NCBI RefSeq assembly: GCF_000027125.1
Contig: NC_017626.1
From: Escherichia coli 042
GTDB lineage: Bacteria; Pseudomonadota; Gammaproteobacteria; Enterobacterales; Enterobacteriaceae
DNA: 64,000 nucleotides
Direction: 5' to 3' (one strand)
This document shows positions 60,301 through 63,300 of the stretch, in pieces; the first letter of the stretch is position 1; each line of letters begins with the position of its first letter. Made by a program: the position numbers.

Positions 60301-63300
60301 CTCGAATGTCCTCTGGTTTTACCTTTAACAGAGCCGCAAATTTTAGCGCAGCGTCGGTATTTACCGGTATCTTGCCGTTCAGATACTGGCTAACGGTGCC
60401 TTGAGATTCGAATCCCAACAACTCAGCCGCCAGCTCTTGAGTCAGCTTCAGCTCTTTTTTTCTTGCATTCCATGCGGCTTTTAAATTCTTGCTCGCTTCT
60501 GGAGTTGCAATCACTTCGCGTGTTTTTTTCATACATAGAGTTTATTTGTTTTACCAATATTATCAAAGATAGTCTGGCTATTGATCTTTAAAATTAGCGG
60601 GGCTAATATTTGCTCGAGGCATAACGTAGAAGGTTGGCTATGAACTTAAGAGACTATTTAAAAGAGAAACATATCACCCAGCTACAGTTTGGGAAGCTAA
60701 CGGGTTTATCTCAGGTGCATGTAAGTCGAGTGCTGGGGGGCTATGAAAGATTCAGCCCTGAAAAAGCATTACGTGTTGCTGAAGTAACGAATTTCGAGGT
60801 TACACCTCATGAACTCCGGCCTGATATTTACCCGAATCCAACCGACGGCTTACCTGTTGGATTCAAGGCTAACACACCAAATGCATCGGAGTTGATTCAT
60901 GAAAATCAGGCATGAGCACATCCGCATGGCGATGAATGCCTGGGCGCATCCGGACGGTGAAAAAGTTCCGGCAGCTGAAATAACCCGGGCTTATTTTGAG
61001 CTTGGTATGACGTTCCCGGAATTATATGACGACAGCCATCCGGAAGCCCTGGCTCGCAATACCCAGAAAATTTTCCGCTGGGTGGAGAAAGACACTCCTG
61101 ATGCGGTTAAAAAAATTCAGGCGTTGTTACCAGCGATCGAAAAAGCAATGCCGCCTCTGCTGGTGGCCCGAATGCGCAGCCACAGTTCAGCTTATTTTCG
61201 GGAGCTGGTGGAGACGCGGGAACGACTGGTGAGAGACGCTGATGATTTTGTCGCAGTGGCGATCGCTGGTTTCAACCAGATGAATCGTGGTGGCCCTGCA
61301 GGAAATATTGTGGCTGTGCATTGACTCGCAATATTCATACCGGATCACTTCCGGCAATTTGTGAGTAAAAAGATTCGGTATCAGAAGAGGTGAGTATGGC
61401 TAACGCCTGGCTCAGATTATGGCATGACATGCCAAATGACCCTAAGTGGCGAACAATTGCCAGGGTGTCAGGGCAGCCAATTGCAACAGTGATGGCAGTG
61501 TATATCCACCTTCTGGTGAGCGCGTCACGAAATGTCACGACATGTCACGGCGTGTCACTACGTGGTCACATTGATGTCACGACGGAAGATTTAGCAAGTG
61601 CGCTTGATGTGACGGAAGAAGTAATTGATTCAATTTTACAGGCAATGCAGGGGCGGGTACTTGATGGAGATTTAATCACCGGATGGGAAAAACGCCAGGT
61701 ACTGAAAGAGGACAATGGCAACGTTTCACAAACCGCGAAATCCCCGGCAGAGCGCAAGAGAGCGCAGCGCGAGAGGGAAAAATTACGAAAACAGAATGAG
61801 GGGTGTCACGACGAGTCACGCATATGTCACGACATGTCACGACGAGTCACGACAGATAAAGATACAGATAAAGAATTAAACCCCACACATAACGCGCACG
61901 TGCGCGAGAGTGCTCCGACCAGTGAGTCGAGTGGTACGCCGTTGCAGGCAGCAGAACCTGCATCCCTGGATGGACTGAGCGAACCCATCGGGAAATTTCC
62001 GATGGTCGATGACTGGCATCCGTCGCCGGATTTTCGACGACGGGCTGCGTTGTGGGGGATGGCTTTGCCGGAGCCGGAATTTACACCTGCTGAACTTGCC
62101 GCTTTCCGGGACTACTGGGCAGCGGAGGGGAAAGTTTTCACGCAGGTTCAGTGGGAGCAGAAATTCGCCCGTCACGTAAATCACGTCAGGGCGCAGGTTA
62201 AGCCAGTCAGCAAGGGGGTAAACCATGCAGCAGCACCAGGTGGCACCGCATCACGGGCAGTTCAGGAAATTCGGGCAGCACGTGAGCAGTGGGAACGTGA
62301 AAACGGATTTATCAGCGACGGAAACGGTCTGGAAGCTGTGGGAACTCATGGGGGAGGTTTATTCGAACCGCTGGACCCAGAAGAACGGGGCCGCACCTTC
62401 GAAGCTCTGGATTGCACAGATTGGCGCGATGACTGAGCAGCAAATCCGACAGGTCTGCCGCCAGTGCATGGACCGCTGCCGGGCGGGTGAAACATGGCCT
62501 CCGGACCTGGCTGAGTTTGTGGCGCTGATTTCAGAAAGCGGGGCCAATCCATTTGGCCTGACGGTGGATGCTGTGATGGAGGAGTACCGCCGCTGGCGTG
62601 ATGAATCCTGGCGATATGACGGAAGCGACAAATATCCGTGGCCTCAGCCTGTGCTGTACCACATCTGCCTCGAAATGCGTACCAGAGGGATTGAGCGCCA
62701 GATGACGCAGGGTGAGTTAAAACGACTTGCGGAACGGCAACTGACGAAATGGGCAAAGCATGTTGGTAACGGGATGAGTGTTCCGCCAGTGCGACGACAA
62801 CTGGAAGGGGCGAAACACCCGCAAGGGCCAACGCCAATTGAACGGCTGAAACAGGAATACGAACGCCGGAAGGCAGCTGGTTTTATTTGAATCTGAGAAA
62901 CGATTTTGTCGGAGGAAATTTTAATGGAAACCGTATTTGACGCACTGAAAGCAATGGGAAAAGCCACATCGGTAGAACTGGCCGCGCGACTTGATATCAG
63001 TCGTGAAGAGGTTCTCAACGAGCTGTGGGAACTCAAAAGAAATGGCGTCGTTGATAAAACTGGTCACACCTGGTTTCTGGCTGGCGAAGGTGAATCCCGG
63101 GTAACCGAAGAGCGGCCAGTAAAATCTGAAGCACAGGATATGCTGACCGGGGAGGTCGAACAAAAAGTTACCGCAGACATGATGATTGAGTTTATCGGTC
63201 AGGATGGTGCTAAAACGTGTGAGGAACTGGCGGGTAAGTTCGGCGTCAGTACTCGCAAGGTTGCCTCCACGCTGGCGGTGGTAACCGCAACGGGGCGGCT

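Follow-up and report, generated by a model that had tools for sequence, protein, structure and literature searches.

We analyzed two short direct-repeat arrays that lie inside a phage replication initiator gene of Escherichia coli 042, within a stretch of 64,000 nucleotides of contig NC_017626.1 (assembly GCF_000027125.1), the whole of which is referred to here as the window. The locus corresponds to the early region of a Rac/Qin-like lambdoid prophage, and an identical copy is present in strain 118UI and others. Its genes are arranged in the order cI-like repressor (60071 to 60532, minus strand), cro-like gene of the YdaS family, cII-like gene of the YdaT family, initiator, and lambda-P-like helicase loader. 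The initiator gene (61396 to 62436, plus strand; alternative GTG start at 61390) encodes a protein of 346 amino acids (aa), consisting of an N-terminal part that putatively binds the origin, a linker, and a C-terminal DnaT-like domain. The loader gene (62429 to 62890, plus strand), with the start assigned by the NCBI Prokaryotic Genome Annotation Pipeline (PGAP), overlaps the initiator stop codon through an ATGA sequence.

The first array, iteron cluster 1 (61524 to 61581), contains six direct repeats of GTCAC(G/T/A), with GTCACG at 61524, 61534, 61544, and 61576, GTCACT at 61554, and GTCACA at 61565; consecutive copies are 10, 10, 10, 11, and 11 bp apart. Iteron cluster 2 (61805 to 61851) contains five copies of GTCACG, starting at 61805, 61815, 61826, 61836, and 61846, with spacings of 10, 11, 10, and 10 bp. 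A first-pass annotation of this DNA had placed the two clusters at these positions and had described them as helically phased. Reading of the sequence and a pattern search demonstrated that the coordinates are exact to the base, and the phasing is borne out, with every copy of both clusters on the plus strand at intervals of 10 to 11 bp. Nine of the 39 GTCACG sites in the window are packed into 330 bp, and Tandem Repeats Finder reported period-10 arrays at 61524 to 61569 and at 61804 to 61854. When all 5-mers and 6-mers of the 64 kb were searched for runs of at least four copies at spacings of 9 to 12 bp, the two clusters were the only runs detected, and no comparable run occurred in 100 dinucleotide-preserving shuffles of the window. 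With six and five similarly oriented copies, the clusters have at least the three that define an iteron array, far beyond chance. Because the period of 10 to 11 bp is not a multiple of 3, each of the three frames is used to translate the repeat, which yields VT, (C)H(D/G), and SR and gives the peptides ...SRNVTTCHGVSLRGHIDVTT... and ...GCHDESRICHDMSRRVTT...; the earlier remark that the repeats force peptide repeats on the protein is correct in this sense.

Cluster 2 is directly followed by an AT-rich tract (61852 to 61885, not assigned to a strand) that is a putative DNA unwinding element. Its coding strand is rich in purines, reading ACAGATAAAGAT twice and then ...AATTAAAC, and the G+C content is 29%. 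The internal repeat that had been noticed here was recovered by Tandem Repeats Finder as 1.9 copies of the 12-mer ACAGATAAAGAT at 61852 to 61874. Positions 61851 to 61881 are the least stable 30-mer of the gene, with -32.7 kcal/mol versus a window mean of -42.65 kcal/mol (standard deviation, 3.55), and are among the least stable 0.3% of the 64 kb. An AT-rich stretch of the kind expected of an unwinding element is thus adjacent to the array, and it is short, at about 30 bp.

Relatives of the initiator gene were collected by tblastn against phage genomes and by two scans of IMG/VR, down to approximately 30% identity, and a mechanical array scan was applied to about 80 distinct genes from E. coli, Pseudomonas, Aeromonas, Ralstonia, and metagenomic phages. 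The module is present in 2,207 of 5,426 complete E. coli genomes (about 40%), with up to five copies per genome, and O157:H7 prophages are among its carriers. The layout is retained at a distance. Pseudomonas phita81A (64% identity) has four copies of GTCACG, then four of GTCACGC, then AGATAAAGATACAGAAGAAG, and Aeromonas pAEv1818 has an array of four, an array of three, and then GATAAA repeats. In Ralstonia Hennie (37% identity), GCAACGC occurs four to five times at both positions and is followed by a purine tract, while metagenomic phage ctOK67 has the second array only, with GTAACGC/GAAACGC cores and then GATACA repeats. An array in the position of cluster 2, at about nucleotides 330 to 520 of the gene, was found in nearly every one of the genes, and an array at about nucleotides 128 to 240 was found in most of them, with several clades lacking cluster 1. 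Copy numbers range from 4 to 10 in cluster 1, where it is present, and from 3 to 6 in cluster 2. The core is clade dependent (GTCACG, GCAACG, GTGACG, GTAACG, GAAACG, GAACGC, or AACGCC), and wherever cluster 1 is recognizable its core is that of cluster 2 of the same genome. It therefore appears that a single specificity determinant reads both arrays. The logo of the family is G-N-N-A-C-G-(C/A), in which ACG is constant and the leading G, which was not imposed by the search, is found in 95 to 100% of copies in the five main core types. Among 387 single-turn spacings, 255 are 10 bp and 99 are 11 bp.

The position of the unstable tract is conserved along with the arrays. We determined the least stable 30-mer within the first 680 nucleotides of each of 80 distinct genes, and in 67 of them it starts between -10 and +25 bp from the last cluster 2 iteron (median, +4); purines predominate on the coding strand of the tract in the relatives, too. 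These comparisons show cluster 2 and the A-rich tract to be the likely functional core, conserved almost universally, and cluster 1 to be a probable accessory. The first-pass annotation had treated the two clusters as one origin, which probably holds for cluster 2 with its tract; the clusters are not equivalent, however, as several clades do without cluster 1.

Constraint on the repeats is visible at synonymous sites. In 31 distinct GTCACG-type genes, the entropy at third codon positions was 0.095 bit inside the cluster 1 hexamers versus 1.356 bits outside (permutation P < 1e-5), a contrast whose weight for an origin is reduced, as the genes were picked for having at least 3/4 hexamers and this inflates it somewhat. 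The hexamers are fixed at synonymous positions, and the spacers drift. Among close E. coli relatives, copy number shifts in frame-preserving steps; the window has two iterons more than phage Evi, a difference of 21 bp or seven codons. These patterns show selection that, judged from the alignments, acts on the DNA of the arrays. A separate observation concerns the spacing. GTGACG contains TGA, and one of the three reading frames is therefore closed to it. GTCACG arrays use all three frames, unlike those of the GTGACG type, and in the five-copy GTGACG-type genes (for example L099 and L104, of the group L099 to L117) spacings of 10 and 11 bp alternate, as at nucleotides 129, 139, 150, and 160 of L099. 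Coding constraints thus shape iteron spacing, because the TGA in GTGACG closes one frame.

The first-pass annotation had called the initiator gene O-like. By position and logic the name is apt; by sequence it is not, since the Pfam family Phage_rep_O (PF04492) gave no match and the BLASTP comparison with lambda O gave an E value above 2. The protein matches PHROG 1408 and PHROG 3729, both "replication initiation protein," with E values of 2e-116 and 9e-93, and PGAP labels the identical gene as encoding a "DnaT-like ssDNA-binding domain-containing protein." Its DnaT-like single-stranded DNA-binding domain (aa 201 to 267, encoded at 61996 to 62196, plus strand) belongs to Pfam PF17948 (E value, 2.2e-17), and NCBIfam PRK02854 (DnaT) matches aa 192 to 278 with an E value of 7e-28, under its curated cutoff. 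Through this domain the initiator presumably contacts the helicase loader and single-stranded DNA. The loader itself is supported by PHROG 109, "P-like helicase loader" (E value, 2e-63), by the PGAP name "replication protein P," and by BLASTP against lambda P (25% identity over 113 aa; E value, 2e-6), so that the initiator has a lambda P-type partner.

The first 160 residues of the initiator match no Pfam family, nor do the N-domains of 70 relatives; none of the 71 members reaches an E value of 0.001 or less with any Pfam family, and the N-domain has no sequence match in the PDB. TIGR01714 aligns with it end to end (aa 5 to 131 versus model positions 1 to 118 of 119) with 19.4 bits, which is below the cutoff of 49.8 for membership (E value, 9e-4). 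PF09681 (Phage_rep_org_N) reaches an E value of 0.1 or less in 1 of the 71 members, and PHROG 4880, "replisome organizer," matches with an E value of 4.5e-5. This raises the possibility of a remote kinship of the initiator to the replisome organizer N-terminal family. An AlphaFold model built from the 71-sequence alignment (mean predicted local distance difference test [pLDDT] score, 76.8) contains helices at residues 16 to 25 and 29 to 45, a loop at 46 to 62, a helix-helix-hairpin unit at 63 to 95 (with a helix at 63 to 70), and a long basic helix at 117 to 135, followed by a disordered acidic linker. In a Foldseek search of the PDB there was no match with an E value below 0.1, and the best weak matches were the CRP, MarR, and ArsR domains of winged-helix regulators; HTH_Crp_2 reaches an E value of 0.1 or less in 10 of the 71 members. 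Cluster 1 encodes aa 43 to 62, the end of helix 2 and the loop. Cluster 2 encodes aa 137 to 152 in the disordered linker (pLDDT score, <50), and together with the A-rich tract it covers aa 137 to 164. The model therefore suggests that both clusters are placed in parts of the protein that would tolerate change, a loop and a disordered linker.

The long basic helix lies next to cluster 2. Its coding segment (61732 to 61800, plus strand; aa 113 to 135, ...AKSPAERKRAQREREKLRKQ...) is a candidate for the element that reads the iterons. R120 is invariant in the family, and R125 and R127 are nearly so. The iteron core tracks the helix (aa 107 to 136) better than it tracks the N-domain, with nearest-neighbor concordances of 60/65 versus 47 to 48/65. 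At position 121, after R120, we found K in 31 of 31 genes with GTCACG, S in 12 of 12 with GCAACG, T in 11 of 14 with GTGACG, and V in 10 of 10 with G(T/A)AACG, this last group comprising six typed genes and four weak-array genes whose cores were judged by eye. Genes L102 and L103 differ in core (GAAACG versus GTGACG) and at position 121 (V versus T), and the rest of their helix is 75% identical. Genes L106 and L108 are 74 to 90% identical over nucleotides 0 to 300 and 68 to 86% identical over nucleotides 450 to 700, versus 50 to 56% over nucleotides 300 to 450, the part that holds the helix and cluster 2; L106 carries GCAACG, and L108 carries GTCACG. There are four such swap pairs, with N-domains that are 78 to 89% identical. 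In 27 further pairs, N-domains of less than 40% identity are accompanied by the same core and a helix with at least 60% identity. Repeat and initiator thus covary, with at least six core types and a core that tracks the helix, subject to the caveats of shared descent and physical linkage.

Judging from these comparisons, iteron specificity is most likely set by the basic helix at about aa 117 to 131 (ERKRAQRER) and not by the winged-helix-like N-domain. A more specific proposal, which we advance tentatively and would not bet on, is that this helix, encoded 5 to 70 bp upstream of cluster 2, reads the two variable bases of G-N-N-ACG through a near one-residue code at position 121. It is likewise possible, if somewhat less than probable, that the helix and iterons form a portable specificity cassette of about 150 bp that has been moved by recombination between otherwise unrelated initiator backbones. 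If so, the origin specificity of the many prophages that share a host cell in E. coli and other proteobacteria would be determined by the cassette, as probably would their incompatibility.

The gene itself is a mosaic. Nucleotides 1 to 485, including both clusters, are about 88% identical to phages Evi, Tritos, and others, whose C-terminal halves differ, and nucleotides 465 to 1047 are about 92% identical to Rac-SA53 ydaU. The BLAST matches of the two halves meet at nucleotides 465 to 485 of the gene (61854 to 61874), which places the junction in the A-rich tract itself. An origin-specific N-terminal half is joined here to a loader-specific C-terminal half, as in classical lambdoid O genes. 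The Rac YdaU type shares with the window the C-terminal half, the A-rich tract, and the next, P-like gene, at about 92% DNA identity to Rac-SA53 ydaU/ydaV. Its N-domain differs, in that it is DUF1376, is unrelated to that of the window, and is encoded without GTCACG repeats. Just upstream of the shared tract, Rac-SA53 ydaU has a perfect 10-bp inverted repeat, TGTTCAAACA-N13-TGTTTGAACA (L002, 2941 to 2973), which is a candidate binding site for the DUF1376-type N-domain and possibly a part of Rac oriJ.

We consider that the element is probably the replication origin of the Rac/Qin-like lambdoid prophage, situated inside the gene of its own initiator, and put the probability at roughly 0.8. This reading is based on a layout conserved in distant phages, cores that change together, synonymous constraint on the repeats, an unstable tract after cluster 2, and the context of cII-like and P-like genes. 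The suggestion in the first-pass annotation of a putative prophage origin within the initiator gene is supported in this respect by strong comparative evidence. The evidence fits an origin of the iteron-plus-unwinding-element kind that is read by the product of the gene itself, as are lambda ori, SPP1 oriL, and the origin of TP901-1. From the repeats, phasing, conservation, covariation, unstable tract, and gene context observed here, we infer a role for the helix and the following course of binding, melting, and helicase loading. Upon induction, transcription from the cro-side promoter would lead to production of the initiator, whose protomers would bind the G-N-N-A-C-G-(C/A) iterons, here GTCACG, head to tail at one per helical turn. 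A one-sided nucleoprotein filament would form on cluster 2, assisted, possibly via looping, by the accessory cluster 1, which lies about 230 bp upstream, and the complex would destabilize the neighboring A/purine-rich tract of about 30 bp. The C-terminal DnaT-like domain and the P-like loader from the adjacent gene would then bring host DnaB to the opened DNA.

Phased direct-repeat arrays are also known to act as operators and, in plasmids, as iterons for control or incompatibility. The two clusters could accordingly be operators for autoregulation or copy control, blocking transcription of their own gene or titrating the initiator, with replication starting elsewhere. At least cluster 1, which several clades lack and which is not flanked by an AT-rich tract, could be regulatory in this manner. 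For the element as a whole we nevertheless regard this as unlikely, given that the least stable, purine-rich tract nearly always comes directly after cluster 2, which is a hallmark of iteron-plus-unwinding-element origins, that the 64 kb contain no other periodic array, and that the mosaic junction is placed as in lambda-type origins. In addition, a promoter/terminator scan detected no promoter-like site within the initiator gene or in or near the arrays. An Rfam scan found DicF upstream and nothing else, and with both scans blank at the repeats, a reading of these as an RNA or a promoter is unsupported. The repeats could also be sites for a different protein, namely, the cII-like activator, a terminase at a packaging site, or a partition system at a centromere. 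Lambda cII uses direct repeats spaced by 10 bp, and parC of plasmid R1 consists of two sets of five 11-bp repeats; the spacing and two-set layout at this locus are similar, and a cII-like gene of the YdaT family is located immediately upstream. The same architecture, however, occurs in phages with wholly different neighbors, such as Ralstonia Hennie and ctOK67, and the core type follows a segment of the product of the very gene that hosts the arrays. No partition or terminase genes adjoin the initiator module, and we consider sites for another protein very improbable.

We give hardly any credence to the view that the arrays lack a function at the DNA level, having arisen as slippage duplications tolerated in flexible regions of the protein or through selection for the encoded peptide repeats. 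The variable copy number agrees with this view, as does the placement of both clusters in a loop and a disordered linker of the AlphaFold model. Against it, a period that is not a multiple of 3 yields no consistent peptide repeat, synonymous hexamer positions stay constant as the spacers drift, two separate arrays switch core in step across clades, and the arrays persist down to about 30% protein identity. Selection for the peptide repeats was rejected on the basis of the three-frame reading and the conserved synonymous sites.

Several points weigh against an origin at this site. Cluster 1 is dispensable in several clades, the mean spacing in the family is 10.24 bp, slightly less than 10.5, and the least stable stretch lies elsewhere in 13 of the 80 relatives. 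The A-rich tract of the window has only about 30 bp at 29% G+C, and several nearby intergenic stretches are equally or more unstable. Some covariation between core and protein would arise from shared descent in any case. The helix, moreover, physically adjoins cluster 2, and because this linkage alone could yield the association of helix and core, we hold the idea of a reading helix provisionally. Since the N-domain has no significant match to curated families or solved structures, its binding to DNA is something that we infer. Our literature searches, which covered GTCACG iterons, iterons in combination with "replisome organizer," DnaT-like phage proteins, and Rac oriJ, found no paper on the element or on an origin of the family. 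An apparent hit in the literature was discarded, as it was the M13 sequencing primer only. A paper on the "Eru" replication modules of Stx phages did not analyze origins.

Comparison with known origins places the element in a familiar class. The principle of an origin within the initiator gene is textbook knowledge, and on the sequence comparisons made here the element would work like the origins of lambda, SPP1, and TP901-1/Tuc2009, with no detectable homology to them. Lambda ori is situated inside O, after the part encoding the N-terminal DNA-binding region, and consists of iterons followed by an A/purine-rich unwinding tract, as is the case here. The N-terminal part of lambda O binds DNA and the C-terminal part binds P. 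The lambda gene order of cII, initiator, and P-type loader is also shared, the P-like protein of the window being a true homolog of lambda P, and in both cases the split between origin-specific and loader-specific halves falls at the origin. The description of the element as a mirror of lambda ori is accurate for this layout. It does not extend to the iterons. Lambda has four 18-bp dyad-symmetric iterons, each bound by an O dimer and about 20 to 24 bp apart, with a high-AT region of 39 bp, whereas the repeats of the window are asymmetric direct repeats of 6 to 7 bp at a single-turn spacing of 10 to 11 bp. The initiators are unrelated in sequence, and here there are two arrays rather than one and a DnaT-like C-terminal domain.

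In SPP1, oriL lies in gene 38 and is bound by the product of that gene, the replisome organizer G38P; it consists of AB boxes and an unwinding element, and a 356-bp fragment suffices in vitro in a reconstituted system. The likeness to the window consists in short direct repeats about 11 bp apart in the middle of the gene, followed by an A-rich tract. SPP1 has a second binding region, oriR, 13 kb away, while here the second array is about 230 bp away in the same gene. The C-terminal domain of G38P is TIGR02220 and not DnaT, and the loader G39P with a phage DnaB-type helicase takes the place of the P-like loader. When aligned with the profile of the 71 N-domains by hhalign, G38P had a probability of 0.1%, with no detectable homology. 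The SPP1 repeat GAAACGACA has an ACGAC(A) core in common with GTCACGACA of the window, which may be chance. The repeats in gene 38 (L168, 9930 to 10030) read aGAAACGACAg and aGAAACGACAc versus tGTCACGACa in the window, and GAAACG is also one of the core types of the family studied here. The likeness could be due to chance, convergence, or a very remote kinship.

For the initiators of lactococcal P335-type phages, ORF13 of TP901-1 and Rep2009 of Tuc2009, the origin is formed by direct repeats that lie in the gene encoding each protein and are bound by it. As in the window, the repeats of TP901-1 rep precede an AT-rich stretch in the middle of the gene. These proteins are replisome organizers, a name that PGAP also gives, as "phage replisome organizer," to some relatives of the window gene in E. 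coli. TP901-1 Rep gave an hhalign probability of 0.2% with the same N-domain profile, its C-terminal domain is DnaD and not DnaT, and the Phage_rep_org_N model matches below threshold. The element differs from all of these systems in having very short, asymmetric, one-turn repeats and two arrays about 230 bp apart in one gene. It also differs in pairing a DnaT-like C-terminal domain with a P-type loader and in having an uncharacterized N-domain.

The replication module is widespread, occurring in approximately 40% of complete E. coli genomes as well as in Pseudomonas, Aeromonas, Ralstonia, and environmental phages. Knowledge of its origin and specificity determinant would allow prediction of cross-activation or interference in the replication of co-resident prophages and would make small initiator/iteron pairs, orthogonal to one another, available for vector construction. 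How origin specificity evolves could be studied in a simple system, the natural cassette swaps.

Further elements were observed around the arrays. A degenerate inverted iteron copy is located at 61607 to 61614 (minus strand; top strand, ATGTGACG), about 30 bp past cluster 1. In most GTCACG-type relatives this spot, at nucleotide 191, is CGTGAC, which is GTCACG on the bottom strand, and in some GCAACG-type genes an inverted copy is found at nucleotide 194. It covaries with the core only partly, being present in most GTCACG-type, some GCAACG-type, and no GTGACG-type genes. As covariation is partial and the spot encodes a conserved ALDVT motif, the status of this copy is uncertain. A perfect 14-bp GC palindrome, CGCGCACGTGCGCG, lies at 61893 to 61906, about 10 bp past the A-rich tract. 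It has an imperfect copy in Rac-SA53 ydaU, is absent from phage Evi, and is part of the Rac-type C-terminal module.

With respect to the loader, an ATG at 62225, with AAGGGGG before it, opens a longer reading frame that overlaps the last 212 nucleotides of the initiator gene in a different frame. In this extended version, the PHROG 109 match starts at residue 19. Both the initiator and the P-like protein match PHROG 15931, which has 482 positions. This indicates either a long overlap in two frames or a mis-set loader start. The cro-like and cII-like genes, at 60634 to 61324 of the window, are named "YdaS family helix-turn-helix protein" and "toxin YdaT family protein" by PGAP. PHROGs assigns these two proteins to a transcriptional repressor and a CII-like activator, which conflicts with PGAP as to what the second gene does. 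Upstream of the immunity region is the gene for the DicF antisense RNA (58238 to 58289, minus strand; Rfam RF00039, 71.5 bits). In the identical prophage of E. coli 118UI, dicB, ydfC, and ydfB lie beside DicF, and the presence of DicF here together with these genes in the 118UI copy identifies the prophage as Qin/Rac-like.

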